From the NCBI RefSeq assembly GCF_003790525.1, contig NZ_CP033635.1: a stretch of 64,000 nucleotides of DNA, one strand, 5' to 3'. The stretch's first letter is position 1; each line of letters begins with the position of its first letter. The notes beneath the pieces are model-generated. The model had not been told where the DNA came from, ran no database searches, and saw nothing but the letters and a program-made list of their open reading frames with translations. Below, in pieces: positions 28,314 through 53,302 of the stretch. Both the position numbers and the translations under genes were made by a program. This stretch comes from Escherichia coli. Its GTDB lineage: Bacteria; Pseudomonadota; Gammaproteobacteria; Enterobacterales; Enterobacteriaceae.

Positions 28314-30740
28314 ATGTCCAAAAATGAACAAATGGTGGGCATCAGCCGCAGAACACTCGTTAAATCTACCGCGATAGGTTCTCTGGCGCTGGCTGCAGGC
28401 GGTTTTTCTTTACCGTTCACCCTGCGCAGTTCAGCGGCAGCGGTACAACAGGCCAGCGAAAAAGTGGTCTGGGGTGCCTGTTCCGTCAACTGTGGTAGCC
28501 GCTGTGCACTTCGTCTACATGTTAAAGATAATGAAGTCACTTGGGTGGAAACTGACAACACCGGCAACGACGAGTATGGCAATCAACAAGTACGCGCCTG
28601 TTTGCGCGGTCGGTCCATCCGTCGACGTATTAATCATCCCGATCGCTTGAATTACCCAATGAAACGCGTGGGCAAACGTGGCGAAGGCAAATTCGAACGG
28701 ATTAGCTGGGATGAAGCCCTGGATACTATCGCCAGTAGCCTGAAAAAAACCGTCGAACAATATGGCAATGAGGCTGTATATATTCAGTACTCTTCAGGGA
28801 TCGTTGGCGGCAATATGACCCGCTCTTCACCATCAGCCTCGGCGGTCAAACGCCTGATGAACTGCTACGGCGGTTCACTCAATCAGTATGGCTCCTACAG
28901 CACCGCGCAAATTTCCTGTGCCATGCCCTACACCTACGGCAGTAATGATGGCAACAGCACCACGGATATTGAAAACAGCAAGCTGGTCGTGATGTTTGGT
29001 AACAACCCGGCAGAAACCCGCATGAGCGGCGGTGGCATCACTTATCTTCTTGAAAAAGCACGCGAGAAATCGAACGCAAAAATGATTGTTATCGATCCGC
29101 GATATACCGATACGGCTGCTGGTCGTGAAGACGAATGGTTACCTATTCGCCCGGGCACCGATGCCGCGCTGGTTGCGGGTATTGCCTGGGTATTGATTAA
29201 CGAAAATCTCGTTGATCAACCTTTTCTCGATAAATACTGCGTCGGCTATGACGAAAAAACCTTACCCGCAGATGCACCAAAAAATGGTCACTATAAAGCC
29301 TATATTCTTGGTGAAGGTGATGATAAAACAGCGAAAACGCCGCAGTGGGCTTCGCAAATTACCGGTATCCCGGTGGACCGTATCATCAAGCTGGCTCGTG
29401 AAATTGGCACAGCAAAACCCGCTTATATCTGCCAGGGCTGGGGGCCGCAACGCCAGGCAAACGGTGAGCTGACCGCACGCGCTATTGCTATGTTGCCTAT
29501 TTTGACGGGCAATGTCGGCATCAGCGGCGGAAATAGTGGTGCGCGTGAATCGACCTATACCATTACCATAGAACGCCTACCGGTGCTGGATAATCCGGTC
29601 AAAACGTCAATCTCTTGCTTCAGCTGGACGGATGCTATCGATCATGGCCCGCAAATGACGGCAATCCGCGACGGTGTCCGGGGCAAAGATAAACTGGATG
29701 TGCCCATTAAGTTCATCTGGAACTACGCGGGAAATACCCTCGTTAATCAGCATTCTGACATCAACAAAACGCATGAAATTCTGCAGGACGAATCGAAATG
29801 CGAAATGATTGTGGTCATCGAAAACTTTATGACCTCATCGGCAAAATATGCCGACATTCTGCTGCCAGACCTGATGACCGTTGAGCAGGAAGATATTATT
29901 CCTAACGACTACGCCGGTAACATGGGATATCTCATTTTCCTTCAGCCAGTCACCAGCGAAAAATTCGAACGCAAACCGATTTACTGGATCCTGAGTGAAG
30001 TCGCGAAACGTCTTGGACCTGACGTCTATCAAAAGTTCACTGAAGGTCGCACTCAGGAACAATGGTTACAACATCTGTACGCCAAAATGCTTGCCAAAGA
30101 TCCGGCGTTACCGTCTTACGACGAACTGAAAAAAATGGGTATCTATAAGCGTAAAGATCCCAATGGTCATTTTGTCGCCTACAAAGCATTTCGTGAGGAC
30201 CCCGAGGCAAATCCACTTAAAACGCCTTCCGGTAAGATTGAAATTTATTCCAACAGGCTGGCGGAAATTGCCCGTACCTGGGAACTGGAAAAAGATGAAG
30301 TGATAAGCCCATTGCCAGTTTATGCCTCAACCTTTGAAGGCTGGGACTCCCCTGAACGTAGAACCTTCCCACTGCAACTGTTTGGTTTCCATTACAAATC
30401 CCGTACTCACTCGACCTACGGCAACATTGATGTCCTGAAGGCAGCCTGCCGTCAGGAGGTGTGGATCAACCCTATAGATGCACAGAAACGTGGGATTGCC
30501 AACGGCGATATGGTGCGGGTGTTTAACCATCGTGGCGAAGTTCGGCTACCAGCCAAAGTGACACCACGCATTCTCCCTGGAGTTAGTGCTATGGGCCAGG
30601 GAGCCTGGCACGAGGCCAATATGTCTGGCGATAAAATCGACCATGGCGGCTGTGTGAATACGCTAACCACTCTGCGCCCTTCACCACTGGCGAAGGGAAA
30701 CCCGCAGCACACTAATCTGGTCGAGATCGAAAAAATATAA
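28314..30740 (+). CDS. ynfE: Tat-exported molybdopterin oxidoreductase catalytic subunit (DmsA paralog)
   Basis: 808 aa, twin-arginine signal (SRRTLVK), Cys cluster CSVNCGSRC. Confidence 0.9.
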   Translation: MSKNEQMVGISRRTLVKSTAIGSLALAAGGFSLPFTLRSSAAAVQQASEKVVWGACSVNCGSRCALRLHVKDNEVTWVETDNTGNDEYGNQQVRACLRGRSIRRRINHPDRLNYPMKRVGKRGEGKFERISWDEALDTIASSLKKTVEQYGNEAVYIQYSSGIVGGNMTRSSPSASAVKRLMNCYGGSLNQYGSYSTAQISCAMPYTYGSNDGNSTTDIENSKLVVMFGNNPAETRMSGGGITYLLEKAREKSNAKMIVIDPRYTDTAAGREDEWLPIRPGTDAALVAGIAWVLINENLVDQPFLDKYCVGYDEKTLPADAPKNGHYKAYILGEGDDKTAKTPQWASQITGIPVDRIIKLAREIGTAKPAYICQGWGPQRQANGELTARAIAMLPILTGNVGISGGNSGARESTYTITIERLPVLDNPVKTSISCFSWTDAIDHGPQMTAIRDGVRGKDKLDVPIKFIWNYAGNTLVNQHSDINKTHEILQDESKCEMIVVIENFMTSSAKYADILLPDLMTVEQEDIIPNDYAGNMGYLIFLQPVTSEKFERKPIYWILSEVAKRLGPDVYQKFTEGRTQEQWLQHLYAKMLAKDPALPSYDELKKMGIYKRKDPNGHFVAYKAFREDPEANPLKTPSGKIEIYSNRLAEIARTWELEKDEVISPLPVYASTFEGWDSPERRTFPLQLFGFHYKSRTHSTYGNIDVLKAACRQEVWINPIDAQKRGIANGDMVRVFNHRGEVRLPAKVTPRILPGVSAMGQGAWHEANMSGDKIDHGGCVNTLTTLRPSPLAKGNPQHTNLVEIEKI

Positions 30741-30797
30741 CCCTCTACGACCATAAATTTTGACATGACATTTTGTTTGAAAAGCAATAAGTGAGTA

Positions 30798-33223
30798 ATG
30801 ATGAAAATCCATACCACAGAGGCGCTCATGAAGGCTGAAATCAGCCGTAGAAGTCTGATGAAAACCTCCGCACTTGGCAGTCTTGCGCTGGCAAGCAGTG
30901 CTTTCACTCTGCCATTTTCCCAAATGGTCCGAGCGGCAGAGACACCGGTAGAAGAGAAAGCGGTCTGGAGTTCCTGCACCGTTAACTGCGGGAGCCGCTG
31001 TCTGTTACGTTTGCATGTGAAAGATGACACCGTGTACTGGGTGGAGTCTGATACGACAGGTGACGACGTCTACGGTAATCATCAGGTTCGAGCGTGTTTA
31101 CGCGGGCGCTCTATCCGTCGACGGATGAATCATCCTGACAGGTTGAAATATCCCATGAAGCGCGTCGGCAAGCGCGGTGAAGGTAAATTTGAACGGATAA
31201 GTTGGGATGAAGCCCTGGATACCATCAGTGATAATCTTCGGCGGATCCTGAAAGATTACGGCAATGAGGCTGTACATGTCCTGTACGGAACAGGCGTAGA
31301 TGGCGGAAACATCACCAACTCGAACGTCCCGTACCGTCTGATGAACTCTTGCGGTGGTTTTCTCAGTCGCTATGGCAGCTACAGTACCGCACAGATCAGT
31401 GCCGCGATGAGTTATATGTTCGGTGCCAATGATGGCAACAGCCCGGATGATATCGCCAATACGAAACTGGTCGTTATGTTCGGAAATAACCCGGCAGAAA
31501 CCCGGATGAGCGGCGGTGGTGTCACTTACTACGTCGAGCAAGCCCGCGAACGTTCAAACGCACGCATGATCGTCATTGATCCACGTTATAACGACACTGC
31601 TGCCGGCGTGAAGATGAATGGCTGCCCATTCGCCCTGGCACCGATGGCGCACTGGCCTGTGCGATTGCCTGGGTACTGATTACTGAAAACATGGTCGATC
31701 AGCCATTTCTCGACAAATATTGTGTTGGTTACGATGAAAAAACGCTGCCCGCCAACGCACCACGTAACGCGCATTATAAAGCCTATATTCTGGGCGAAGG
31801 GCCTGACGGCATAGCTAAAACGCCGGAATGGGCAGCAAAAATCACCAGCATCCCGGCAGAAAAAATTATCCAGTTGGCACGAGAGATCGGTTCAGCAAAA
31901 CCGGCTTATATTTGTCAGGGTTGGGGGCCACAACGACATTCCAACGGCGAGCAAACATCCCGCGCTATTGCCATGCTTTCCGTTCTCACCGGTAACGTCG
32001 GCATAAACGGCGGCAACTCAGGTGTACGCGAAGGTAGCTGGGATCTGGGAGTAGAATGGTTCCCGATGCTCGAGAATCCTGTTAAAACGCAGATTTCCGT
32101 CTTTACATGGACAGATGCCATCGACCATGGTACGGAAATGACCGCGACCCGTGATGGTGTTCGTGGAAAAGAAAAACTGGATGTCCCCATCAAGTTTTTA
32201 TGGTGCTACGCCAGTAACACATTGATCAATCAACATGGCGACATCAATCACACCCATGAGGTGCTTCAGGATGACAGCAAGTGCGAGATGATTGTTGGCA
32301 TTGACCACTTCATGACTGCCTCGGCTAAGTATTGCGATATCCTGTTGCCCGACCTGATGCCAACAGAGCAAGAAGACCTTATCTCTCACGAATCTGCCGG
32401 GAATATGGGCTATGTGATCCTCGCCCAACCCGCAACCTCAGCAAAATTTGAACGCAAACCCATCTACTGGATTCTGAGTGAAGTTGCCAAACGCTTAGGA
32501 CCAGACGTTTATCAAACCTTTACTGAAGGTCGCAGTCAGCATGAATGGATCAAATATCTCCATGCGAAAACGAAGGAACGTAACCCTGAGATGCCCGACT
32601 ACGAGGAGATGAAAACGACCGGGATCTTTAAGAAAAAATGCCCGGAAGAACACTACGTCGCTTTCCGCGCATTCCGTGAAGATCCACAGGCAAACCCGTT
32701 GAAAACACCTTCGGGGAAAATCGAAATTTATTCTGAACGACTGGCGACGATTGCGGATACCTGGGAATTGAAAAAAGATGAAATTATTCATCCCCTTCCT
32801 GCATATACCCCAGGTTTTGATGGCTGGGACGATCCCCTGCGGAAAACCTATCCACTGCAGCTAACGGGCTTCCACTACAAAGCACGTACCCACTCCAGCT
32901 ACGGCAATATTGATGTGTTACAGCAGGCCTGCCCACAAGAGGTGTGGATCAACCCCATTGATGCTCAGGCACGCGGTATCCGTCATGGCGATACCGTGCG
33001 GGTATTTAACACTAATGGAGAAATGCTGATTGCCGCAAAAGTGACTCCGCGTATTCTGCCTGGCGTTACCGCCATCGGGCAAGGTGCGTGGCTTAAAGCG
33101 GATATGTTTGGTGACCGGGTCGATCACGGCGGCAGTATCAATATTCTGACCTCTCACCGCCCTTCACCGCTGGCAAAGGGAAACCCGTCGCACAGCAATC
33201 TAGTCCAGATCGAAAAGGTTTAA
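30798..33223 (+). pseudogene. ynfF: YnfF (second DmsA paralog) disrupted by an apparent 1-nt deletion near 31605-31610 (or sequencing error)
   Basis: ORFs 30798..31679 and 31691..33223 together match YnfE end-to-end but are in different frames; frame-A tail after DPRYNDTAAG is nonsense. Confidence 0.6.
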
Positions 33224-33233
33224 GGAGTAGCCC

Positions 33234-33851
33234 ATGACCACACAATATGGATTTTTTATCGATTCCAGCCGCTGTACTGGCTGTAAAACCTGCGAACTGG
33301 CGTGCAAAGATTTTAAAGATCTTGGCCCGGAAGTCAGTTTCCGCCGTATTTATGAATATGCTGGCGGCGACTGGCAGGAAGATAATGGCGTCTGGCACCA
33401 GAACGTGTTCGCTTATTATCTCTCCATCTCCTGTAACCATTGCGATGACCCCGCATGTACAAAAGTCTGCCCCAGCGGCGCAATGCATAAGCGTGAAGAT
33501 GGCTTTGTGGTGGTTGATGAAGATGTTTGTATCGGCTGCCGCTACTGCCACATGGCTTGTCCGTACGGCGCACCACAGTACAATGCTGAAAAAGGGCACA
33601 TGACGAAGTGCGATGGTTGTTATTCGCGCGTCGCCGAGGGGAAACAACCCATATGTGTCGAATCCTGCCCGCTGCGTGCACTTGAATTCGGTCCAATTGA
33701 AGAGCTGCGCCAGAAGCACGGCACTCTGGCTGCCGTTGCGCCACTGCCGCGCGCGCATTTCACAAAACCCAATATCGTTATCAAACCTAACGCCAACAGC
33801 CGCCCGACCGGCGATACCACTGGTTATCTGGCTAATCCGGAGGAAGTGTAA
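33234..33851 (+). CDS. ynfG: 4Fe-4S ferredoxin-type electron-transfer subunit (DmsB paralog)
   Basis: 205 aa with four CxxCxxCxxxCP clusters. Confidence 0.9.
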   Translation: MTTQYGFFIDSSRCTGCKTCELACKDFKDLGPEVSFRRIYEYAGGDWQEDNGVWHQNVFAYYLSISCNHCDDPACTKVCPSGAMHKREDGFVVVDEDVCIGCRYCHMACPYGAPQYNAEKGHMTKCDGCYSRVAEGKQPICVESCPLRALEFGPIEELRQKHGTLAAVAPLPRAHFTKPNIVIKPNANSRPTGDTTGYLANPEEV

Positions 33852-33852
33852 A

Positions 33853-34707
33853 ATGGGAAATGGATGGCATGAATGGCCACTGGTTATCTTTACCGTATTG
33901 GGTCAATGCGTAGTAGGCGCGCTGATTGTTAGCGGAATTGGCTGGTTCGCCGCCAAAAATGACGCAGACCGTCAGCGTATTGTCCGTGGCATGTTTTTCC
34001 TCTGGCTGTTGATGGGCATCGGGTTTATTGCCTCTGTCATGCACCTGGGGTCGCCACTGCGGGCGTTTAACTCGCTGAATCGAATCGGAGATTCTGGTCT
34101 GAGTAACGAGATTGCTGCCGGTTCCATATTTTTTGCCGTTGGCGGATTATGGTGGCTGGTGGCAGTCATCGGTAAAATGCCGCAAGCGTTGGGGAAACTC
34201 TGGTTACTTGTCAGCATGGCGCTCGGCGTCATTTTCGTCTGGATGATGACCTGCGTGTATCAAATCGACACAGTGCCAACCTGGCATAACGGTTACACTA
34301 CGCTGGCTTTCTTCCTGACAGTATTGTTGAGCGGTCCAATACTTGCTGCCGCAATTCTGCGGGCAGCCCGCGTTACATTTAATACCACACCATTTGCCAT
34401 CATTAGCGTTCTGGCGCTGATCGCTTGTGCCGGGGTGATTGTGCTGCAAGGTTTGTCTCTGGCGTCTATTCACTCATCCGTACAACAAGCCAGCGCACTG
34501 GTACCAGATTACGCCTCCTTACAGGTCTGGCGTGTGGTATTGTTATGCGCAGGTCTAGGATGCTGGCTTTGTCCGCTCATTCGTCGCCGTGAACCTCACG
34601 TTGCCGGACTTGTTCTGGGGTTAATCCTCATTCTTGGCGGTGAAATGATCGGGCGTGTGCTCTTTTATGGCCTGCACATGACGGTAGGAATGGCTATTGC
34701 AGGTTAA
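33853..34707 (+). CDS. ynfH: membrane anchor subunit (DmsC paralog)
   Basis: 284 aa polytopic protein from MGNGWHEW, overlapping the ynfG stop. Confidence 0.85.
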   Translation: MGNGWHEWPLVIFTVLGQCVVGALIVSGIGWFAAKNDADRQRIVRGMFFLWLLMGIGFIASVMHLGSPLRAFNSLNRIGDSGLSNEIAAGSIFFAVGGLWWLVAVIGKMPQALGKLWLLVSMALGVIFVWMMTCVYQIDTVPTWHNGYTTLAFFLTVLLSGPILAAAILRAARVTFNTTPFAIISVLALIACAGVIVLQGLSLASIHSSVQQASALVPDYASLQVWRVVLLCAGLGCWLCPLIRRREPHVAGLVLGLILILGGEMIGRVLFYGLHMTVGMAIAG

Positions 34708-34749
34708 CAAATTGGTGCGGGGCAACCCGCACATTTCAGGATGTTAGGA

Positions 34750-35364
34750 ATGACCCATTTTTCACAGCAAGATAATTTTTCTGTTGCGGCGCGCGTGTTG
34801 GGCGCGCTGTTTTATTACGCTCCAGAGAGTGCGGAAGCCGCCCCCCTGGTTGCGGCACTCACCCGTGACGGCTGGGAAACTCAGTGGCCTCTACCAGAAG
34901 AGTCATTAGCGCCGCTGGTGACTGCTTTTCAGACACAGAGTGAAGAGACTCACGCCCAGGCTTGGCAGCGTTTGTTTGTCGGCCCGTGGGCACTGCCGTC
35001 ACCGCCGTGGGGATCGGTCTGGCTGGATCGCGAATCTGTGCTGTTTGGCGATTCAACATTGGCACTTCGTCAGTGGATGCGCGAGAAAGGCATTCAGTTT
35101 GAAATGCAGCAAAACGAACCGGAAGATCATTTTGGTTCACTGCTGTTGATGGCTGCGTGGTTGGCGGAGAATGGTCGCCAGACAGAATGCGAAGAATTGC
35201 TGGCATGGCACCTTTTTCCGTGGTCAACACGTTTTCTTGACGTTTTTATCGAAAAAGCAGAACACCCTTTCTACTGTGCACTGGGTGAACTGGCTCGCTT
35301 AACGCTGGCGCAATGGCAATCACAACTGTTGATTCCTGTCGCGGTTAAACCACTCTTTCGATAG
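34750..35364 (+). CDS. dmsD: Tat proofreading chaperone DmsD
   Basis: 204 aa from MTHFSQQDNF, TorD family. Confidence 0.88.
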   Translation: MTHFSQQDNFSVAARVLGALFYYAPESAEAAPLVAALTRDGWETQWPLPEESLAPLVTAFQTQSEETHAQAWQRLFVGPWALPSPPWGSVWLDRESVLFGDSTLALRQWMREKGIQFEMQQNEPEDHFGSLLLMAAWLAENGRQTECEELLAWHLFPWSTRFLDVFIEKAEHPFYCALGELARLTLAQWQSQLLIPVAVKPLFR

Positions 35365-35558
35365 GATCACCGTAATATTGCCGGATGGTGACGATTACGC
35401 GCGATTCGGCAATAATACGTTACAGTGTCACGTTTTTTTATCTCTTAAAGCACGCACTGCTTTTGCGGCTGGCCTCTTTTGCCGCAAAATAGTCGCCCGT
35501 GTTTCATTGCCCATTTCTGCTCATGCATCATCTACACATCTATCCGGATCTGAGCACT

Positions 35559-36815
35559 ATGTTCCGCCGTCTGCTTATCGCAACAGTCGTCGGTATTCTT
35601 GCGGCCTTTGCCGTTGCCGGGTTTCGTCATGCAATGCTGCTACTGGAGTGGTTGTTCCTCAATAATGACTCCGGCAGTCTGGTCAATGCAGCGACAAATC
35701 TTTCCCCATGGCGACGGTTGCTAACTCCGGCGCTCGGCGGACTGGCGGCGGGTTTGTTGCTGATGGGCTGGCAGAAATTTACCCAGCAACGCCCTCATGC
35801 GCCGACCGATTACATGGAAGCGTTGCAAACCGATGGTCAGTTCGATTACGCAGCAAGCCTGGTTAAATCGCTTGCCTCTCTGCTGGTAGTAACCAGCGGC
35901 AGTGCAATTGGTCGCGAAGGTGCGATGATTCTTTTAGCTGCCCTTGCCGCCTCCTGTTTTGCCCAACGTTTTACGCCACGCCAGGAGTGGAAATTATGGA
36001 TCGCCTGTGGAGCTGCGGCGGGAATGGCTGCGGCCTATCGAGCCCCGCTTGCTGGCAGTTTATTTATAGCCGAAGTGCTGTTTGGCACTATGATGTTGGC
36101 CTCTCTCGGCCCGGTGATTATTTCCGCCGTCGTGGCGTTGCTGGTTAGCAATCTGATTAATCATAGCGACGCGTTACTCTACAGCGTACAACTCTCAGTG
36201 ACGGTTCAGGCTCGTGACTATGCGCTGATTATCAGTACAGGTGTGCTGGCAGGTCTGTGCGGACCACTGTTGTTAACGTTAATGAACGCCTGTCATCGTG
36301 GATTTGTAAGTCTCAAACTTGCGCCGCCCTGGCAACTGGCACTGGGCGGGTTGATCGTGGGTCTGCTTTCCCTGTTCACACCTGCAGTGTGGGGCAACGG
36401 CTATAGCACCGTACAATCCTTTTTAACCGCCCCGCCACTGTTAATGATCATTGCCGGGATCTTCCTCTGTAAACTGTTTGCCGTGCTGGCGAGTAGTGGT
36501 TCTGGCGCGCCCGGTGGTGTCTTTACACCGACGCTATTTATCGGTCTTGCCATTGGCATGTTGTATGGTCGTAGCCTGGGATTATGGTTCCCTGATGGCG
36601 AAGAAATTACGCTTTTACTCGGATTGACCGGGATGGCGACACTATTGGCGGCAACCACGCACGCGCCGATTATGTCGACGTTGATGATATGTGAAATGAC
36701 CGGGGAGTATCAGCTACTCCCCGGTTTATTGATTGCCTGCGTAATTGCGTCGGTAATTTCGCGGACGTTACACCGTGACTCTATCTACCGCCAGCACACT
36801 GCGAAGCATAGCTAA
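35559..36815 (+). CDS. clcB: ClC-type voltage-gated chloride channel ClcB
   Basis: 418 aa from [11 protein letters not shown]; GREG and GxFxP motifs. Confidence 0.85.
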
Positions 36816-37463
36816 GCGGATGTATTGCCCCAGTTCACGCTGTTCGGCGCGCGGCAGATAAGGCAGTTCACCAATGAGCGGTGCCGGAAGTTTTTTACCG
36901 AGCACATCAATGATTTCCGCATAATGCGCAAGTCCTGGGTTGATTCGGTTAGCCACCCAGCCAATGAGCGGCAGCCCGTCGTTGGCAATCGCCTGAGCTG
37001 TTAGCAGTGCATGGTTAATGCAACCTTCCTGAATACCGACAACCATCAACACCGGCAGTTGTTCCTGCACCACCCATTCAGAGAGCGGACGCAAATCATT
37101 CATCAGACTGCGCCAGCCGCCAGTCCCTTCTACCACGACATGATCGACTTTATCGGTCAGGTTTGCCAGGCCGTTTGAAATGAGGGTGTAATTGATTGGG
37201 CAACTGTGCGCCACGCTACTTTCTTCTTCGCTTAACGCGATAGGATTAACTGCTTCATAAGGCAGTTCGATGGTTGAAACACTCTGCAACACCAGGGCAT
37301 CTTTATTACGCAGCCCTTCGGGTGTCTCTTTGCTCCCCTTCGCTACGGGTTTATATCCCGCAACCGTTTTTCCCTGGGAGGCTAACGCTTGTAGCAATGC
37401 GCGGGAAACCACCGTTTTCCCTACAGAAGTGTCTGTACCGGTAATAAAGAAACGCTTCAGCAT
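36768..37463 (-). CDS. bioD2: dethiobiotin synthetase paralog BioD2 (YnfK)
   Basis: 231 aa with P-loop GTDTSVGKT. Confidence 0.85.
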
Positions 37464-44157: not shown

Positions 44158-44322
44158 ATGGCAAAGCCGATCATCACGCTCAATGGCCTAAAAATCGTCA
44201 TTATGTTGGGAATGCTGGTCATTATTCTCTGCGGTATCCGTTTTGCCGCCGAGATCATCGTGCCGTTTATTCTCGCATTATTTATTGCTGTTATATATAA
44301 CTTATTTCGCTTAACTAATTGA
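44158..44322 (+). pseudogene. tqsA: tqsA 5' fragment (first ~45 codons, then foreign tail and stop) cut by the inserted element
   Basis: [45 protein letters not shown] then IYNLFRLTN*; the rest of the gene resumes at 55720. Confidence 0.85.
44286..44294 (+). repeat. left copy of 9-bp junction direct repeat TGCTGTTAT (candidate att core/overlap)
   Basis: identical 9-mer at 55720-55728; flanking bases differ on both sides. Confidence 0.6.
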
Positions 44323-44365
44323 TTTAATTAAATAATTTGCACTACAAAAAGTGCCAAAAATCGCA

Positions 44366-44391
44366 AATTAACTACACCATTAACTACACCG
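44366..44391 (+). repeat. left copy of 26-bp direct repeat AATTAACTACACCATTAACTACACCG (tandem 12-mer; candidate integrase arm-type sites)
   Basis: exact copy at 55567-55592; followed in both copies by a related ACAACGTG(G/A)AACAA motif. Confidence 0.6.
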
Positions 44392-45466
44392 TTCGGCGCA
44401 CTGTATGAAACAACGTGGAACAAATAGACACAAGCGGCAGGCTATACCGTTATCATTTTTCAGCTATCCGTCATGAAGCTGGTGGATGATCACGGATAAC
44501 CAGGCATCTACAGCGCCTTAAAAAGCTGAACCCGACAAACATTTCTGCTTATCGGGTCCGATCGCTCTTTCTACTCGTGGCAGATGAGTTTACTAGGAAG
44601 GGGGGAACATTGTATCAGGCTATCCCCTTTCTGTGCTGATTCGGCTGGTGAATGATCTACTTGGGGCACTACACTTTTCGGATAGTGCGGGTATCCGGTT
44701 TTCTGCCTCATCGAATTTTAAGCCTTCTGACGGCCTGTATATCATTTCCTGTGGAGTTGCCGCCCTGATAGCGAATACTGCGGCAGCATGTGATTTACCC
44801 CCCGTTCTGTTGATGTTTGATGTGGCTGGTTGATGTGCTGCCATGTTTTCCGCCAATGGTGGAAAAGCCCACCAGCGCAACGCAGGACGCATAAAACCAT
44901 TGCGATGACTCTGGACGCAAAACCACGTTTAACGATGTTTTGCACTGAACCAGAATACTGTTCGTTTTTGTCTCGATGTCCGTACGTATTACGTCCGCAC
45001 CTAATCCGGCATCATGCCCACCAGCGTAACGCATTTTTTTAATTTCGTGGCTGTGCGTCCACCAGCTACGCCGGAATGGGGTATTCCGTTTCAACGGAAC
45101 AGGTATGACGAACATAATCGCACCTTCTCCCGAAAACGGTGCGACCTGCATCATCGAAATGGTGATTCAGCTACTCGGCGATTTTCACCATTCAGAATCT
45201 GGCGGGTGAGTTATCCAGCTTCCACCAATGGGGGATTCTGGAACAATCAACGGGTTACGCCTTATCAGCAAAAAAGCACATCAACTGTAAAGGAAATCGT
45301 TATGGTTGCTGGTGGGCTGCGTCACCATCATGGTGATGATGCTGTCCAGTCAGCCGGAACGGTTGAACAGGGTGGCTATGGGTCACTCTGTTGTGCGTTA
45401 TTTGCGTGATCCTGGTACGGGGTGACTATCTTTCAGATAGTCGGTTGCCTGGTTACACGAAAAAAT

Positions 45467-45769
45467 TTACTTCCTGCGTTTATCCTGCTTTGTATGCCCG
45501 TGCTGAATGCCCCGCAGTGGATCTTCTTTTTTCAGGTCGATCCCCATGTCCGTTAGTGTTTTTGTGGCGGCGGTTCTTATGGCACAAATCAGGTCTCTTT
45601 CCGGTTCCCGGGTTATGGTTGCCTTCCGGATGCATGCCGTTCGTCGTTCCGTTACATACTGACGCGCTTCATCACTTGCCGCCTGTTTCAGTAACTCACC
45701 CCAGCGATTAGCCGCCCGTCGCCATAAACCTTTCGCTTCCAGTTCTTCCGCTTTGTCATCATGCACCAT
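45467..45769 (-). CDS. ANR-like small regulator, paralog 2 (start at MVHDD.. assumed)
   Basis: MVHDDKAEELEAKGLWRRAANRWGELL... parallels the protein at 49352-49624. Confidence 0.55.
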   Translation of the reverse strand: MVHDDKAEELEAKGLWRRAANRWGELLKQAASDEARQYVTERRTACIRKATITREPERDLICAIRTAATKTLTDMGIDLKKEDPLRGIQHGHTKQDKRRK

Positions 45770-45883
45770 AAGCATAATCCCATTGATACCTGTTAACTCT
45801 GAATGGTTGGTTTCTGTTCTTTTGATAATTTCCCGCATAGCTTATTGTATGACAGTACTGTCCCACAATAAGGAGTTGCACGC

Positions 45884-46174
45884 ATGAGAATGACTAGGCA
45901 CAAAAAACAGATTCTTGAACTCTACAAACCTGAGTATCGCGATTGGGTGCGGGTGGAGGCCGGAGATCCGCCTTTTGATGTTCGTGGTGTGACAGTGCTG
46001 CTCTATGGTTCCGAATATCGGCGATATCACATAGAGGCAACACGAAGGACGCTAAACGCTATGGTTCGTGATAAGTTGCTGGAGCGTGTGAAAGTCCGTG
46101 AGCCACGTTTTGATGTGCGTATTGGTGGCGATGGTGCGCATTGCACGGTAATCCGCTATGGCCTGGTAAGGTAA
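45884..46174 (+). CDS. hypothetical protein (96 aa), divergent from the ANR-like gene
   Basis: ORF with upstream AGGAG-like RBS; no recognisable family. Confidence 0.4.
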   Translation: MRMTRHKKQILELYKPEYRDWVRVEAGDPPFDVRGVTVLLYGSEYRRYHIEATRRTLNAMVRDKLLERVKVREPRFDVRIGGDGAHCTVIRYGLVR

Positions 46175-46276
46175 GCCATCGGGTAAATCAGATGATTAAA
46201 TCACCAGAATGTAAATTTACATTCTGCCAGCCACCAGCTACCCTCCTCAAAATTGAGGACCCTTTTTATCAACTGG

Positions 46277-46558
46277 TTACCGCCGCAACCGTTCCGGCTT
46301 CTTCCACTGATAAGTGTTTTTCGCGCTCTCCTGATACATCGCCACGCGTCGACGGTATGCCAGCAACTCTAGTACTCTGATTCGTATGTCGCGCATATCC
46401 ACGCCGTTAAGCTCAATACCATCACGGCGCATTACATCAGCAACAACACGCACATAATTTTCGGCGGTCACGCTGTCCGGCTGCGTGGCCTGTTCGTCAT
46501 GCTGCTGGCTGATTCCGGTAACGCGGCGGATTAATCCCAGTAGTTCGACTTCTGTCAT
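46277..46558 (-). CDS. hypothetical protein (93 aa) adjacent to cos copy A; start taken at internal Met
   Basis: MTEVELLGLIRRVTGI...; the longer ORF 46277..46756 would read through the cos site and is judged an artefact. Confidence 0.4.
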   Translation of the reverse strand: MTEVELLGLIRRVTGISQQHDEQATQPDSVTAENYVRVVADVMRRDGIELNGVDMRDIRIRVLELLAYRRRVAMYQESAKNTYQWKKPERLRR

Positions 46559-46570
46559 TGTGCCCCCATC

Positions 46571-46648
46571 GCTCTGATAGTCTGGTGTCGTCGGGTCCTT
46601 TCCGGCATGTGGACCCGTTACGGGGCGTCGACCTCGCGCGTTTTCACT
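46571..46648 (+). other. lambda-like cos site copy A (cosQ-cosN-left-arm homology); cosN-like 12-mer GGGCGTCGACCT at 46602-46613
   Basis: GGGTCCTTTCCGG...GTTACG GGGCGTCGACCT CGCGCGTTTTCACTATTTATGAAAATTTTTCGG closely matches the recalled lambda cos junction (lambda cosN GGGCGGCGACCT). Confidence 0.75.
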
Positions 46649-46664
46649 ATTTATGAAAATTTTT

Positions 46665-46775
46665 CGGGATCCATGTCCGGTTTCTCTGCAAGTTAACCAT
46701 ATGAAAAATATAAAAACATGCTTTCCATGAACCGGACATGCGCAAAAAACAGACACTAAAACCGGACATCGAACC
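46665..46775. repeat. three CCGGACAT motifs in alternating orientation next to cos copy A (candidate cosB-like terminase-docking sites)
   Basis: ATGTCCGG near 46671, CCGGACATG near 46729, CCGGACATC near 46763. Confidence 0.45.
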
Positions 46776-46837
46776 AGTTAACCGAAAGTGTGCACAAATC
46801 ACATTCATTGCTGCGAGTGATTAACAAGTTATCGGCT

Positions 46838-47272
46838 TTACTGTTCTGTATCGGCTGATTGCTCCATGCTGGCACGGCGAACGCTTACGGCATGACGCCA
46901 CCCAGCCAGAAAGCCAGCCATTTTATTTCGTGCCTTGCTCACATCTTCCGGTGAATAGCCGTAAATATGCAAACCTTCATCAAATCGATGTTCTGTTTCT
47001 TCACTGGAGTACTCGTCACGCTCAGATGAAAGCAGCCTCGCAAACATAATTTTTTCCAGCGCACTGGTTTCTACGTGATATCCGATGGTCTGAAGATGGC
47101 TTTTACCTGAATACCAAAGCAATGTATGCCCGATGTGATAACCGCCAGACTTTCCGCGATCCGCATTAAGATACGGCATCCCCTGTTTGGTCCATGCGCG
47201 AATAGTGGTTCTGTTAACCTTGAAATGTTCAGCTATTTCCTGCTGACTTACAAAACAAGCTTTATCAATCAT
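46838..47272 (-). CDS. Nu1-like small terminase-type DNA-binding protein (wHTH N-terminus, divergent C-terminus); possibly a packaging-redirection factor
   Basis: VSQQEIAEHFKVNRTTIRAWTKQGMPYL aligns with lambda Nu1 VNKKQLADIFGASIRTIQNWQEQGMPVL; 144 aa versus 181 aa for Nu1. Confidence 0.65.
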   Translation of the reverse strand: MIDKACFVSQQEIAEHFKVNRTTIRAWTKQGMPYLNADRGKSGGYHIGHTLLWYSGKSHLQTIGYHVETSALEKIMFARLLSSERDEYSSEETEHRFDEGLHIYGYSPEDVSKARNKMAGFLAGWRHAVSVRRASMEQSADTEQ

Positions 47273-47334
47273 AATGTTACCTTAACTGCATGGTTAAATA
47301 TCAATCAAGTGGTGGTGGTGTCACCTTCACGGAA

Positions 47335-47405
47335 AAACGTCATAAATAGCGAAAACGTGCGAGGTCGACGCCCCGTAACGGGTCCACATGCCGGAAAGGA
47401 CCCGC
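47335..47405 (-). other. lambda-like cos site copy B, inverted relative to copy A; cosN-like 12-mer (reverse complement) at 47362-47373
   Basis: reverse complement reads GGGTCCTTTCCGGCATGTGGACCCGTTACG GGGCGTCGACCT CGCACGTTTTCGCTATTTATGA; lies about 70 bp upstream of the terS-like start in the lambda cosN-to-Nu1 orientation. Confidence 0.7.
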
Positions 47406-47428
47406 AAAAAAAGCCGGATTTCTCCGGC
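47406..47428 (-). terminator. intrinsic terminator after the capsid/decoration genes
   Basis: minus strand GCCGGAGAAATCCGGC followed by U7. Confidence 0.65.
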
Positions 47429-47502
47429 CTTGTCTCAGATGGTTTTCAGTATGCGATAGATGTCGCCGTCATCGCCCTGGTTTGTGCCATCGTTCCCCCT
47501 GC

Positions 47503-47838
47503 TTATCGGGCCAGCGGCTGAACGGATACGCCGGAACCCGCAAAGGCGGCGCATTTTTTCGCATCGGTGTCGACGCTCTCAGGCCAGTTAACGGCGGCAA
47601 TATTGAATATCCCCGTCTTGTAACACTGTGCTGATTTCTGCTTTGACGTGTCCACAGGGTACGAGGTCAGATAAACAGCCTTGCCAGATTCCTTACCATC
47701 CCACGCCTTAAACTCGCCATTGTCTGCCAGCATCAGCGGGGTAAATTCCTGAATAACGCCAGCATCAGCGGCAAAATGTACCAGCGTCGTGGATACCTGT
47801 TGGCTGCCTGAAAATAACTCAATGTATGGAGCGTCCAT
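47503..47838 (-). CDS. lambda gpD-like head decoration protein
   Basis: TPLMLADNGEFKAWDG and AFAGSGVSV match lambda gpD TPLMLDTSSRKLVAWDG and AFAGTAISIV; 111 aa. Confidence 0.8.
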   Translation of the reverse strand: MDAPYIELFSGSQQVSTTLVHFAADAGVIQEFTPLMLADNGEFKAWDGKESGKAVYLTSYPVDTSKQKSAQCYKTGIFNIAAVNWPESVDTDAKKCAAFAGSGVSVQPLAR

Positions 47839-47849
47839 AGAATCCCCCG

Positions 47850-48905
47850 TTAAGCAATTTTGACGGTAACAAATTTGCGAATATCTGCCGGTACAGGCTG
47901 CGGTGCGCTGTGCGTCTGCACGTACTCAATCGCCGGATCGCCGTCCTCAATCCAGTTTTTCGGGTAGTACATGTTTTGCGTTGCGCCCGTTCTTACCGCT
48001 TCCTGATCCATAATCGCACCATATGCCACCAGCCCTTTATTGTTGGTGTTACCCAGGACCAGCAAATCAGGCTCAAGGAAATATTTTTCGGTCCCGTCGC
48101 TGTCAGTGTATTTGCCGGAATAGACGATAAGGGCCAGATCACCAAGATAGCCTTTAAAGCTCACCACTTCGCCCAGGTTTTTACAGGCCAGCTCGGCGGC
48201 GGATTCTGATCCACGGGAAAGATCGTACAGTTCACGGAATTTTTTAAAGCTGCGTAATGTGCGCCATACCTCACCGCCCATAATCATGACGTTGGCGGGG
48301 CAACCTGCCTGATCAGCATAAAGCTCGATGTCATAGATTGGGTCGTGCATGTCTTTATCCTGCTGGGACCATTTTTTACCACTGGCCTGCTGTATGATGC
48401 AGTTTTCCGGTATTTTCCAGTCGATTTCATAGCGTTCTATGCCTTCGCCCTCAATGATGTTTTTTCCGGTCGTTACCGCATTCACCGCCAGCCATTCCAC
48501 GCGCGCCTTAATGGCGTTTATCTGGCGGCGCATGTTGCCAGTAATCAGGCGCATACGGCGGTAAGTTGGATCGTTAAGCTGTGCCGGATCTTCTCCATCC
48601 ATGCGCATGATGGTCTTTGTTGGATCGATTTCGTGCTTTGGCTTCATGTAGCCTGGTTTAATCGTGCTGGTTTCGTACCCTTTATCGCGCTGGACCTGAC
48701 TACCCACCATAGGAGAACAGAACGCTGACATCGTAACCTCTTCAATGTCCAGGGTGTCCAGCATGATGTTTTGGGTGTTGAAGGTCGCCACGTTCGGGAA
48801 AAACAGCGTGGTAAACAGCGGACTAAATTTATATTCCGAAATATCCCCGCGATTCAGGTACGCGAAAAGCTGGTTAGTTGTAAGTGCCTTTGCTTTGCCT
48901 GTCAT
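47850..48905 (-). CDS. lambda gpE-like major capsid protein
   Basis: 351 aa; KPGYMKPKHEIDPTKT, DPTYRRMRLITGNMRR and YPKNWIEDGDPA...SAP...FVTVKIA align with lambda gpE along the whole length. Confidence 0.85.
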   Translation of the reverse strand: MTGKAKALTTNQLFAYLNRGDISEYKFSPLFTTLFFPNVATFNTQNIMLDTLDIEEVTMSAFCSPMVGSQVQRDKGYETSTIKPGYMKPKHEIDPTKTIMRMDGEDPAQLNDPTYRRMRLITGNMRRQINAIKARVEWLAVNAVTTGKNIIEGEGIERYEIDWKIPENCIIQQASGKKWSQQDKDMHDPIYDIELYADQAGCPANVMIMGGEVWRTLRSFKKFRELYDLSRGSESAAELACKNLGEVVSFKGYLGDLALIVYSGKYTDSDGTEKYFLEPDLLVLGNTNNKGLVAYGAIMDQEAVRTGATQNMYYPKNWIEDGDPAIEYVQTHSAPQPVPADIRKFVTVKIA

Positions 48906-49111
48906 TATTCACCTCCGTGAACCTGATTGATACCCAGCGCCGCACGCAAATAGGTGCGCACCTGCCAGCCTGTTGACGGCTCAACCATCGCCAGCGGATC
49001 AAGTCCTGCCGCAATGCCTGCTTTTACATTCTGCTGGTGGCGTTCCTTGAGCGCCTCCACGATGTCGGGGCTTATGTAGACCGTCACCCCGCCTTTTTTC
49101 TCTTCTGCCAT
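48905..49111 (-). CDS. hypothetical 68-aa protein translationally coupled (TAATG) to the capsid gene
   Basis: stop overlaps the gpE-like ATG; first gene of the capsid operon. Confidence 0.5.
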   Translation of the reverse strand: MAEEKKGGVTVYISPDIVEALKERHQQNVKAGIAAGLDPLAMVEPSTGWQVRTYLRAALGINQVHGGE

Positions 49112-49145
49112 AGTCAGAAATTCCTCTTTGACTTAAAAAATCATA

Positions 49146-49163
49146 ACTGGATGTTCATCCAGT
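49146..49163. promoter_or_regulatory. perfect palindrome ACTGGATG-TT-CATCCAGT upstream of the capsid operon (candidate operator/activator site)
   Basis: 8-bp arms with 2-bp spacer, about 35 bp upstream of the first operon ATG (49111). Confidence 0.4.
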
Positions 49164-49322
49164 CCTGATTATAATCATGATTGCATTTTGCGCAACAATA
49201 TTGAGTTACGTTGCAAATTATGAAATGATTATCCCGATCATGTGTGTCAGTTCACCATAAAAAACCTCGTATACAAAAGCCCCATAAGCCCCCTGTGACC
49301 TTATCGGGCTTTTTTTAGGCGT

Positions 49323-49344
49323 AAAAAAGCCGGATTGCTCCGGC
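49323..49344 (-). terminator. intrinsic terminator after the ANR-like gene (same stem family as 47406-47428)
   Basis: minus strand GCCGGAGCAATCCGGC followed by U6. Confidence 0.6.
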
Positions 49345-49351
49345 TGTGTGC

Positions 49352-49624
49352 TCACTTCTGCGGGTAGTTGCGCCATATTGCTTTGCCAATACCAGCTATC
49401 CCCATTTGTTTTTCAGTGCGATTAACTGACCTTTTCAGAGCGCCTAAATCATCCGGCGGCTCCGGTGGCCTCTGTGCCTTACGGATACATTCCGCGCGAC
49501 GCATTGCCACCTGTTCGCGCTCCTTGTCTGTCTCCACCAGCCTCATAACTTCACCCCATCGCGCCGCCGCCCTCCGGTAAAAGCCTTTTGCCTCGAGTTC
49601 CTCCGCTATGCGGTCATGTACCAT
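49352..49624 (-). CDS. ANR-like small regulator, paralog 1 (start at MVHDR.. assumed)
   Basis: MVHDRIAEELEAKGFYRRAAARWGEVM...; longer ORF start would overlap ssb. Confidence 0.55.
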   Translation of the reverse strand: MVHDRIAEELEAKGFYRRAAARWGEVMRLVETDKEREQVAMRRAECIRKAQRPPEPPDDLGALKRSVNRTEKQMGIAGIGKAIWRNYPQK

Positions 49625-49634
49625 CGTCACCCCC

Positions 49635-50045
49635 TCAGAACGGAATATCATCACCGTAAGGGTCATCGCCTCCCGCTGGTGGCTGATTACCCTGTGTGCC
49701 TGTGGTTTTGCGTCTGTTCCCGCCAGGACGTGCCGCACGGGCACTGATTACGCTGTCTGCAATAACCTGCCAGCCCTGCCGCGTTTCCCCGTTCTGTCCG
49801 GTCCACTGGCTGACCTGCATCGTGCCGGATACGCTGGCAACGTCGCCTTTTTGATGTTTAGCCAGAAAGTCGGCCTGTTTGCCAAATGCGATGACCGATA
49901 ACCATAACGTCGCCTGTCCGTCCTGTGCCTGGCCGCATGGTAAAGATACCGCCATACGCGCCAGCGTCATCGGTGTACCCTTACTGGTCTGTTTTACCTG
50001 CGGGTCGTCCACCAGCCGCCCGTAAGCTGCTATCTGTGCTGTCAT
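49635..50045 (-). CDS. single-stranded DNA-binding protein (SSB-like OB fold with acidic DDIPF tail)
   Basis: 136 aa; C-terminal ...DPYGDDIPF typical of SSB; Gly/Pro-rich linker. Confidence 0.75.
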   Translation of the reverse strand: MTAQIAAYGRLVDDPQVKQTSKGTPMTLARMAVSLPCGQAQDGQATLWLSVIAFGKQADFLAKHQKGDVASVSGTMQVSQWTGQNGETRQGWQVIADSVISARAARPGGNRRKTTGTQGNQPPAGGDDPYGDDIPF

Positions 50046-50284
50046 GCTGTCTGCTCTCCGGTTTTAACGTTGATGGTTGTTACCTGTTCTGCTTCGGCAA
50101 TATCCCGCTCTGTCAGCGTGGCAAAGTTTGCCGCCGTCGTTGTCATGAATGCGCTTATCAGTTCGGGATGTGCTTTCGCGTATCCTTCCCCTGTGTTGCG
50201 GTCGATGATTTTTATCGCCACCCTCAGCCAGTGCTCTGTAAGGTCAATGGCGCGGTGATCTGTCTTTTTGTGGCTTACCTTCAT
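50042..50284 (-). CDS. hypothetical protein (80 aa)
   Basis: ORF overlapping the ssb start (coupled); no recognisable family. Confidence 0.45.
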   Translation of the reverse strand: MKVSHKKTDHRAIDLTEHWLRVAIKIIDRNTGEGYAKAHPELISAFMTTTAANFATLTERDIAEAEQVTTINVKTGEQTA

Positions 50285-50287
50285 GAT

Positions 50288-50611
50288 TTACTCCAGAGTA
50301 CCGCTATTGCTGCTGTCGTTAACCGGATACCAGGCAAATACCATCGATTCACCACAGTGAACAAACTTCTTATCCGGCAGATAAAGGCACTCGCACATTC
50401 CCTCATCAGGACTATGCGGACTCATGCCCAGCTCACTGGTCAGCACGGGTAAGATTTCGCGGCAGGTGTTCCCCGCACCGAAATAATCAACCTCACAAAG
50501 CGCCCATGCAGCAATCGGGCTGTACCATTCCGTGCCGTCGTCGTCTTTGAACTTAGCCCACCAGCCAGGAAGGGCAGTTGATATGCTCAGTGTTTCAATT
50601 TCAGTGTTCAT
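50288..50611 (-). CDS. hypothetical protein (about 107 aa; start uncertain)
   Basis: ORF 50288..50656 with internal Met; Cys-rich, no recognisable family. Confidence 0.45.
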   Translation of the reverse strand: MNTEIETLSISTALPGWWAKFKDDDGTEWYSPIAAWALCEVDYFGAGNTCREILPVLTSELGMSPHSPDEGMCECLYLPDKKFVHCGESMVFAWYPVNDSSNSGTLE

Positions 50612-50659
50612 AAATTTACCTTCGGTATTTTGTCCTGCTGTTCGATTTTTATTCATTGC

Positions 50660-50870
50660 TCACCATCTCTCACTTTTACTACTCACTTTTTAAAGCGTCT
50701 CGCTTCGTCTCACTTGAGATTTTTGTGTTTTGTATGTGCATGTTTCATAAGTGTTTTTTCACTGCTCACTTTTGAGCATGTATACAGGTGAGAAAGTGAG
50801 TAATTGTGTTAATATTTTGTAAAAACCTCACCATTACTCACTTTTACTACTCACTTTTTACAGTGGTCCT
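50660..50870. repeat. iteron array (CTCACTT heptamers, two 24-bp direct repeats) - candidate replication origin of the element
   Basis: at least 6 direct and 2 inverted CTCACTT copies between 50669 and 50856; CTCACTTTTACTACTCACTTTTTA at 50669 and 50839; directly 3' of the primase-helicase gene. Confidence 0.6.
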
Positions 50871-52264
50871 ACATCATCACCATCAATGTAAATCACGGCG
50901 TCTTTTTCCAGTTTGGCTAACCATCGCCGCATATTTTTCACGTCATACCCAAGCCGTTTCATGTCATCACGTAACAGCGGGATCGTGCACTTGTCGCCGT
51001 TCTGTGTGCGTGAACGGATGCACCCCCATAGCGCGGTATGGTTTTCCGTCTTGTTGCCTGCCTCCTCGATGCGCTCCAGTTCAGCAGGGGCGCGGGGAAC
51101 GTCAATCACCACCATGGACACAATTTCTTCGCCATCTGTATCGGTGAACACCTCCACGCTTTTAAGGTCGTATGCACTCTCTTTTGGCTCCTCTGCGTCC
51201 TTCATCTTCGTACACGCCGCAACCAGTGCTGTAACGTCTGAATTTTCCCTGCTGATTCGGTACTCTGCATCAAGCGCGGCACGGAATGCACTGGAACCAC
51301 GCGCCCCCTTTGTTTCATCCTTGCCGGAATGGTGAACCACCAGCACCGTGGCCCCTGTGGCCTGCTTTATCGCGTCACACCCCTGGATAAATGCGCCCAT
51401 ATCACGGGAATCATTTTCATCATTCCCACCAAAGCAACGGGCCAGCGTGTCGATCACAATCAGCCGCACATTTTCGCCCGTTCTGCTCTTAACAAGTCCG
51501 GCAGTCCTGATAACCTGCTCCACATAGTCAGGCGATGCAGGGAAAACAGGCGCGTTAATGATGCACAAATCTGTAACCACCTTGTCGTGGGTTATCTCCC
51601 ACGCCTTAACGCGGCGTTTTACGCCCATGCTGCCTTCACCAGCGATATAGATAACCGCACCCTTACTTACCCTGCGGCCTCCCCATGCCATACCTGTGGC
51701 AACATGGCACGACCAGGAAATGGCGAGGAACGATTTATAAGAACCGCTGGCCCCGTAGGTGCTGCATAATGACTCAGCCGGAATAAGCCCCTTAATGACG
51801 TAGCTTTGCTGCGCATCGAATCCCTCAGAACCCCATGAGATGGGAAGTGTGATTTTTCGCTTTCCGCCATTCATGACCAGGCTTTCCCCTCTCTCCCATG
51901 TTTCCCGTAGTCGTGGTAGCTGGTCGCTCCAGTCCTCCAGCAGTTCGAAATTTTCAGAAAGTAGCCGCGCCTCCTGGACTCCGGCGATCGCCAGTTTTGT
52001 GGCAATGGTCAGCATCTGCATATCGTCCAGGTTTCCGGCGCGTATGACCTTTACCCTGTATCGTCCTTCATCAACAATCTGTAAGTTGTCCAGTTCGCTT
52101 AACTGATAACGGCCCAGATAAACCGGAGGGATGGGATCGCCTGCTTTTTTGGCCTGTGCAATCATGTAATGTTCTGCAAAGGAGTGAGCATTATCACCCG
52201 CAAAAATAACCGCCTCAGTGTGTTTATCTTTCGGTAACAGTTTTACGTTCGGTGCAAGTTTCAT
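50858..52264 (-). CDS. replication initiator: primase-associated N-domain + RecA-like/AAA helicase (pri-rep type)
   Basis: 468 aa; Walker A GASGSYKS, Walker B LIVIDTL, VLVVHHSGKD; C-terminal wH-like tail. Confidence 0.8.
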   Translation of the reverse strand: MKLAPNVKLLPKDKHTEAVIFAGDNAHSFAEHYMIAQAKKAGDPIPPVYLGRYQLSELDNLQIVDEGRYRVKVIRAGNLDDMQMLTIATKLAIAGVQEARLLSENFELLEDWSDQLPRLRETWERGESLVMNGGKRKITLPISWGSEGFDAQQSYVIKGLIPAESLCSTYGASGSYKSFLAISWSCHVATGMAWGGRRVSKGAVIYIAGEGSMGVKRRVKAWEITHDKVVTDLCIINAPVFPASPDYVEQVIRTAGLVKSRTGENVRLIVIDTLARCFGGNDENDSRDMGAFIQGCDAIKQATGATVLVVHHSGKDETKGARGSSAFRAALDAEYRISRENSDVTALVAACTKMKDAEEPKESAYDLKSVEVFTDTDGEEIVSMVVIDVPRAPAELERIEEAGNKTENHTALWGCIRSRTQNGDKCTIPLLRDDMKRLGYDVKNMRRWLAKLEKDAVIYIDGDDVGPL

Positions 52265-52548
52265 TTCTTACCCCCTGCGACCAGCATTTCACGGATTTTG
52301 CGGATATAACTTGCAGCACGTTTCTGATTAACGGCTTTACGATGGCCCACCAGCGTGAAATCACGCCGGAACTGATAAACAGGCATAACGCAGTCATATT
52401 CGTAGCCTTCACGGCGGTAAGTGATGCGACGTTCCTCCACGCCCTTAATCATTACCGTGCCGCCGTAGTTATCACGGAAAATATCGCCGGGACGGATTTC
52501 AGGACGAGCGGGGCCGCTGGCATTAACGCCAGAATTTTTATTTTTCAT
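52261..52548 (-). CDS. hypothetical protein (95 aa) translationally coupled to the replication gene
   Basis: stop overlaps the downstream start; basic protein. Confidence 0.45.
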   Translation of the reverse strand: MKNKNSGVNASGPARPEIRPGDIFRDNYGGTVMIKGVEERRITYRREGYEYDCVMPVYQFRRDFTLVGHRKAVNQKRAASYIRKIREMLVAGGKK

Positions 52549-52553
52549 GTTTT

Positions 52554-52781
52554 TTATTCTCCGGTGTGCTGTTCTTTATATCTGTCGTGAATTGCCATCA
52601 CTGTATTTAATTCATTAATAACAGCCGTTAATAGCGTACGCACGGCAGAAAACATCATTGAATCAGATTCATCGCCACTTTCCTGCACATCAATTAAATT
52701 AAGTAGTAATGCGTCCATTTCCTTTGCGCGGATTAATGCCTTTTCACAATGAAAAATAACACCAAAGGGTATTTTATTCAT
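52554..52781 (-). CDS. hypothetical protein (about 75 aa)
   Basis: ORF with internal Met start; first gene after the divergent operator region. Confidence 0.4.
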   Translation of the reverse strand: MNKIPFGVIFHCEKALIRAKEMDALLLNLIDVQESGDESDSMMFSAVRTLLTAVINELNTVMAIHDRYKEQHTGE

Positions 52782-53056
52782 GACTCCCCTCCTGACGGAT
52801 ACGGGCGGCGAATACAGCGACACAACCGGACGGGCAACGGTTACGCGCTTCGCGTTCCGTCCAGGCGGTCACGTGGATAATTTGAGATTCTCCGGCACTC
52901 AGTGCCAGAAAACGCCACACAAAGGCGGTTTGTGTGTGCGCTAGTCGTGGGGTATGCTGTGTTCCAGCCATAATCGTTACTCCTGTTAACGGTTTGGTTA
53001 GACGCCCTGCATGTGTTACAGCACTGCGGGGCGTTGTCTTTTTAACGGCTTTCGTG

Positions 53057-53104
53057 ATAGGGTGTACACCTATCAAGCAAAAACATAACGCTATAGGTGT
53101 ACAC
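53057..53104. promoter_or_regulatory. two TAGG(G)TGTACAC palindromic operator-like sites immediately upstream of the RHH gene
   Basis: ATAGGGTGTACACCTAT at 53057-53073 and ATAGGTGTACAC at 53093-53104, ending at the ATG. Confidence 0.6.
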
Positions 53105-53299
53105 ATGTCAACAGTTATTAAGCGAGATAAAAAACCAAAGGGAACAGGAAAAGCCCCCCCATTCCATATGCGAATAGCTCCAGAACTGAAAGAGCAGTTT
53201 GATAATGAGGCCAGCAATGATGGGGTAAGCCTAGCCAACTGGCTTAAAGAGTTGGGGCGCGCCGAACTAAAGCGACGCGGCATTGAACCTAAAGGCTGA
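53105..53299 (+). CDS. ribbon-helix-helix (CopG/Arc-like) DNA-binding protein, 64 aa
   Basis: beta-strand/helix pattern PFHMRIAPELKEQF...SLANWLKELGRAEL typical of RHH regulators/antitoxins. Confidence 0.6.
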   Translation: MSTVIKRDKKPKGTGKAPPFHMRIAPELKEQFDNEASNDGVSLANWLKELGRAELKRRGIEPKG

Positions 53300-53302
53300 T
53301 GT

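Follow-up and report, generated by a model that had tools for sequence, protein, structure and literature searches.

The catalytic subunits YnfE and YnfF of Escherichia coli have been described as "paralogous selenate reductase isoenzymes" (PMC12724226). In the stretch of 64,000 nucleotides of contig NZ_CP033635.1 (assembly GCF_003790525.1) analysed here, hereafter the window, the region that ought to hold ynfF (30798-33223) contains two open reading frames on the same strand, 30798-31679 (293 aa) and 31691-33223 (510 aa). A first-pass annotation made from the letters of the window had proposed that ynfF carries a 1-nt deletion near position 31606 next to an intact ynfE, and had left it undecided whether this strain had lost its second paralog or whether the assembly contains an indel error. 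The locus hence raises the questions of whether the break is real, how widely and by what route it is shared among other strains, what the interrupted gene may still encode and what would be left of the Ynf system in its carriers.

Results

A single missing nucleotide divides ynfF

Homology to YnfE extends through both reading frames and passes from the one to the other at a single point, YnfE Gly270/Arg271: the first frame matches YnfE residues 10-278 with 66.9% identity, and the second, which is open from 31592 and starts with REDEWLPIRPGTD, matches residues 271-808 with 72.3% identity. When aligned with the intact ynfF of strain SCU-172, the window shows a sole indel, one G, the intact allele reading GCTGCCGGGCGTGAA where the window reads GCTGCC-GGCGTGAA, and a GGG run in codon Gly269 is in this way reduced to GG (Table 1). 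RefSeq takes the second of two possible ATG codons as the ynfF start (30801, which makes the first frame 292 aa; the alternative lies at 30798), and translation from it yields 269 native residues followed by 23 out-of-frame residues and a premature TGA, after which roughly 540 ynfF codons are out of frame. Re-insertion of one G restores a frame of 808 codons with the terminal stop as its only stop, and the protein thus restored differs from K-12 YnfF at 4 of 807 residues. The region therefore displays what defines a frameshift pseudogene, namely that one indel sets it apart from its intact orthologs, that a premature stop ensues and that homology resumes in another frame. As to the position of the missing base and the rejoining of the two frames by one nucleotide, the first-pass annotation was correct; the string it had expected, GCCGGCCGTG, encodes the right residues (Ala-Gly-Arg) in the wrong letters, intact ynfF reading GCCGGGCGTG at the lesion and ynfE reading GCTGGTCGT.

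The identity of the locus is supported both by its position and by profile searches. The gene is the second of a ynfE-ynfF-ynfG-ynfH-dmsD operon, and the order ynfC / ynfD-ynfE-ynfF-ynfG-ynfH-dmsD-clcB is the same in K-12 and also matches that of strain SMS-3-5. The two pieces align with positions 1-267 and 289-798, respectively, of the YnfF profile NF041884, which is the best profile for the N-terminal fragment (547.8 bits, vs 444.3 for YnfE and 404.7 for DmsA) and for the C-terminal fragment (1143.8 bits, vs 958.8 and 836.8). Neither fragment attains the NCBIfam curated cut-off of 1650 bits for NF041884 and, since the gene is split into two frames that both fall short of it, ynfF is to be classed as a pseudogene rather than as a functional member of the family. 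YnfE, in turn, was rightly said to be intact: it scores 1792.6 bits against NF041885, above the curated cut-off of 1675 bits, and its Fe4S4, Molybdopterin and Molydop_binding Pfam domains are contiguous.

Table 1. Features of the ynf operon and of the insertion beside tqsA, in window coordinates
Feature	Position	Strand	Basis
ynfE, intact paralog, 808 aa, selenate/tellurate reductase catalytic subunit	28314..30740	+	ORF; NF041885; Pfam; RefSeq
ynfF pseudogene, whole extent	30801..33223	+	RefSeq 'frameshifted' and pseudogene flag; both pieces best match YnfF profile NF041884
ynfF native N-terminal part, codons 1-269	30801..31607	+	translation; Pfam PF04879, PF00384
ynfF deletion site, GG vs GGG in intact alleles, codon Gly269	31605..31606	+	alignment with SCU-172 and K-12 alleles
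ynfF out-of-frame tail, 23 codons (VKMNGCPFALAPMAHWPVRLPGY), and premature TGA (31677-31679)	31608..31679	+	translations
ynfF downstream ORF, 510 aa, original ynfF frame	31691..33223	+	ORF list; Pfam PF00384, PF01568
ynfG, intact Fe-S subunit	33234..33851	+	ORF; RefSeq; own AAGGAG
ynfH, intact membrane anchor subunit	33853..34707	+	RefSeq mapped onto window; ORF ending at 34707
dmsD, intact Tat proofreading chaperone	34750..35364	+	RefSeq mapped onto window; ORF
Phage major capsid protein E gene, ~11.4 kb insertion	47850-48905		
AAA_25 protein, ~11.4 kb insertion	50858-52264		
Tyrosine integrase, ~11.4 kb insertion	54316-55566		
Imperfect 69-nt direct repeats, ~11.4 kb insertion	44366 and 55567		

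Predicted fate of the YnfF fragments

The N-terminal piece retains the twin-arginine Tat leader ISRRSLMK and the FS0 (Fe4S4) cysteine-cluster domain, with Pfam matches to PF04879 at residues 52-111 and to PF00384 at residues 114-265, the latter covering profile positions 1-149 of 353. The 510-aa frame, which is devoid of a Tat signal, matches PF00384 from profile position 174 to 353 together with the dinucleotide-binding domain PF01568. The lesion thus splits the Molybdopterin domain between profile positions 149 and 174 and leaves its halves in different frames, so that all three domains of YnfF can be recognised but do not form the contiguous Fe4S4-Molybdopterin-Molydop_binding set that follows the twin-arginine leader in full in YnfE. 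More than half of the Mo-bisPGD-binding fold is missing from the truncated protein. From what is established for Tat-exported Mo-bisPGD enzymes, truncated YnfF, with its incomplete cofactor-binding fold, would be expected to bind no cofactor, to be neither released by DmsD nor exported, so failing to mature by the DmsD/Tat route, and to form no YnfFGH complex. We infer this loss of function from the sequence, and some re-initiation at the ATG of the 510-aa frame (31691), situated 12 nt past the premature stop, is conceivable; direct reading of the sequence upstream of this ATG revealed no obvious Shine-Dalgarno motif.

The proximity of that ATG to the stop, and the fact that both frames are otherwise free of lesions in the carriers checked, are what could be adduced for a ynfF that still functions, be it through programmed -1 recoding or polymerase slippage at the site or through a split enzyme assembled from the two fragments. 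We consider such a product very improbable. The sequence around GCC GGC GTG (31600-31612) offers just a GG run and no X_XXY_YYZ slippery heptamer, and the frameshift is the derived state, the in-frame allele being the norm, with more than 4,600 other genomes matched without the deletion; programmed ribosomal frameshifting was rejected on the absence of the heptamer and because the frameshifted arrangement is not conserved across relatives. A split enzyme, for its part, would have to cope with a C-terminal fragment that lacks a Tat signal and with a break inside the molybdopterin domain, and the lack of an obvious Shine-Dalgarno motif speaks against synthesis of that fragment.

The premature stop of ynfF lies about 1.5 kb upstream of ynfG, and polar effects on ynfGH-dmsD are possible. 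Translation of ynfG does not depend on coupling to ynfF, since ynfG has a strong AAGGAG ribosome-binding site of its own, 6 nt upstream. The newly untranslated 1.55 kb shows neither the strong C-over-G bias of a Rho-type polarity signal (C 25.7%, G 24.3%) nor a marked C-rich, G-poor stretch, a composition that is uninformative as to polarity.

The deletion is confined to one clade

The comparison with other strains that the first-pass annotation had recommended was carried out with a 90-nt probe centred on the deletion site, which was searched among 5,426 complete E. coli genomes. Exactly 24 of them carry the deletion allele (100% probe match); the other matches, more than 4,600 in number, are all at most 98.9% identical to the probe, and the two non-carriers inspected directly, SCU-172 and K-12, have GGG. 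The carriers, which include SMS-3-5, derive from human, chicken, dog, pangolin, river water and surface water. Twenty-three of them are the only genomes with approximately 100% identity to the window over 25 kb (next best, 99.2%), and the remaining one, strain 2D, shares 99.995% identity with it over 21.3 kb and ranks lower only through a prophage at one side. Nine other complete genomes, KFu014, M172-1 and XH992 among them, match the window at 100% identity over 25 kb, and SMS-3-5 differs from it by 2 SNPs in the 10.4 kb around ynfF. The private ynfE allele of the clade, at no less than 99% identity, occurs in exactly 24 genomes, the same 24 that carry the deletion, with the next-best match at 98.4%. 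Outside the complete genomes, 884 public contigs contain the exact 510-aa frame; six loci reached by way of it, among them one human-gut metagenome assembly and several draft genomes, all have GG and show 0-1 SNP in ynfE-ynfG. The deletion is thus fixed in this lineage, being present in 24 of 24 clade genomes as well as in the six additional loci and in none of the complete genomes outside the clade. RefSeq labels ynfF a "frameshifted" pseudogene in the three carriers checked (SMS-3-5, LS45 and 2D). SMS-3-5 belongs to ST354 (PMC9174282), and ST354 to phylogroup F (PMC12817139).

Taken together, these observations lead us to conclude, with high confidence, that ynfF became a frameshift pseudogene only recently and has been passed on vertically as such in a clade that includes SMS-3-5 (ST354, phylogroup F). 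The first-pass annotation had thus recognised a real loss, which is shared by a whole ST354-type lineage instead of being restricted to one strain.

Its alternative, that of an assembly or sequencing indel error in a genome that in truth has GGG and an intact ynfF, draws some plausibility from the frequency of single-base homopolymer indels as artefacts on some platforms, and the extra 1-nt deletion found in LS45 alone (window position 30969) could be one such error. As an account of the missing G, we give it next to no credence. The same deletion recurs in 24 complete genomes of varied strains and hosts and in six assemblies that include a metagenome and, by implication, on the 884 contigs with the exact 510-aa frame; it is limited to a single clade, in complete (24/24) concordance with that clade's ynfE allele; and the affected G run is just 3 long. 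The SMS-3-5 genome, moreover, was presumably Sanger-sequenced, in 2008. A deletion that is both clade-restricted and fully reproducible is therefore to be regarded as an inherited mutation and not as a random assembly error.

Reversible phase variation, in which length changes of the G run would turn ynfF on or off in the manner of a contingency tract, was likewise rejected as scarcely believable, for although the lesion is a homopolymer length change, contingency loci use runs far longer than 2-3 nt, the tract (GG vs GGG) is invariant in length within the clade (GG in 24/24 complete genomes and in 6/6 extra loci, with no revertants) and the deleted allele is absent outside the clade among complete genomes. 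A mutational hot spot was discarded as the origin of the lesion, too, the allele being confined to one clade and not having been found outside it among the complete genomes searched.

Age of the break and diversity within the clade

Compared with K-12, ynfF exhibits 4 amino-acid changes per 27 nucleotide differences and ynfE 11 per 63. Such low ratios in both genes imply that purifying selection operated before the break and, therefore, that the break is recent. In the carriers examined we found no second ynfF lesion, save for the possible extra 1-nt deletion in LS45, which is unique among carriers and may represent either further decay or an assembly error. The lack of further decay fits a recent event and would equally fit continued selection on the fragments; we ascribe it to the extreme youth of the clade (~0 to 1 SNP in 21-25 kb). 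Gene conversion between ynfE and ynfF, which might have produced the lesion or the clade's divergent ynfE allele, was rejected given that, of 16 ynfE variants private to the window, just 2 agree with the base in ynfF; the sole private ynfF substitution does equal the ynfE base of the window, and as a single site it is not evidence for gene conversion.

Several members of the clade display further changes at or near the operon. A G->T change at window-equivalent 30282 in the draft genome GCA_902828425.1 splits ynfE into 656 aa and 146 aa, and both Ynf catalytic paralogs thus appear to be broken in this isolate. CP147423.1 loses register with the window from ~33876, an indel close to the ynfH start being the apparent cause, and its ynfH is called with a length of 278 aa instead of 284 aa. 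SMS-3-5 (NC_010498.1, 1588736-1615073) is ~1.3 kb longer than window positions 19000-43999, an ISVsa5-family transposase adjoining asr; the window therefore represents a sibling strain within the clade rather than SMS-3-5 itself.

Surrounding sequence

SNP density relative to SCU-172 is ~1.4% over ynfE and the first 320 nt of ynfF (28314-31118), and 3 SNPs are found in the 6 kb from 31119 to 37223, a pattern which suggests a putative recombination breakpoint within ynfF, a short way upstream of the frameshift. At ~44295-55719, beside tqsA, the window carries an insertion of ~11.4 kb that is absent from SMS-3-5 and from strain 2D and that, judging from its gene content and flanking repeats (Table 1), looks like a small integrative island of the phage-satellite type. 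In several strains from wastewater plants the 25-kb match falls into two pieces, the record spanning ~6.6 kb more than the 25-kb query; the matched features include a site-specific integrase, and ynfE bears only a generic name. It appears that an integrative element has inserted in or beside ynfE in these isolates.

Discussion

The most economical account of these data is that one G was lost from the GGG run of codon 269 in the ancestor of the E. coli clade that includes SMS-3-5, and that the resulting ST354-type lineage would since have depended for Ynf catalysis on YnfE alone, working with the intact YnfG, YnfH and DmsD. Such a loss would be tolerated if YnfE and YnfF are redundant isoenzymes of which YnfF plays the minor part in selenate reduction. 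This notion is in line with work in Salmonella, where the activity is one to which YnfF "does not contribute greatly" and YnfE alone suffices in a delta-ynfF strain (PMC5203670).

For practical purposes, ST354-type E. coli should be modelled with YnfE as the only Ynf catalytic subunit, both in metabolic reconstructions and in the phenotyping of selenate and tellurate reduction, and GG at 31605-31606 provides a clean single-site marker for the lineage. Beyond correct annotation, the importance of the finding is slight: the pseudogene is real but ordinary, it has already been flagged in RefSeq and it fits a known trend. In a 2026 pangenome study (PMC13322260), ynfE and ynfF rank among the metabolic genes of E. 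coli that most frequently occur as pseudogenes, and the present lineage adds one more independent case of this proneness to pseudogenisation. Our own searches point in the same direction, in that ynfF coverage is below 80% in 567 of 5,316 matched complete E. coli genomes (~10%), those sampled showing a 65%-coverage pattern, and ynfE coverage is below 80% in about 207 genomes. A case in point is strain JJ1887, which we take to belong to ST131 and whose ynfF (5004-6573 of its locus) has two internal deletions, at nt 715-1294 (580 bp) and nt 2069-2342 (274 bp).

That two unrelated lineages destroyed ynfF and kept ynfE, ynfG, ynfH and dmsD invites the speculation that loss of YnfF is adaptive and not merely tolerated. 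We deem this unlikely; if it were true, YnfF could compete with YnfE or DmsA for YnfG, YnfH, DmsD or the molybdenum cofactor, and its removal would improve the remaining reductases. In 2003, Lubitz and Weiner reportedly observed that YnfE and YnfF each disturb the accumulation of the other, which may serve as a lead.

Three known systems help to place the allele described here. The intact ynfF of K-12 has the same position and operon order and is 98.8% identical at the nucleotide level, its protein being the one from which the restored YnfF is 4/807 residues apart; it differs in that its codon 269 is complete, whereas the window allele is one G short there and has a frame that ends at codon 293. 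The pseudogene of the JJ1887 type resembles that of the window in that ynfE, ynfG, ynfH and dmsD are intact and RefSeq calls it 'frameshifted', but it stems from an independent event in another lineage, with two internal deletions in place of a single missing base, and it is far commoner. The closest functional parallel is with Salmonella Typhimurium DIG103 (delta-ynfF; Guymer et al. 2009, as cited in PMC5203670), which likewise has YnfE as its sole Ynf catalytic subunit and which still reduces selenate. By analogy, this is the phenotype to be expected of the ST354 lineage, with the difference that DIG103 bears an in-frame laboratory deletion in another species, whereas the natural allele leaves a premature stop within the operon.
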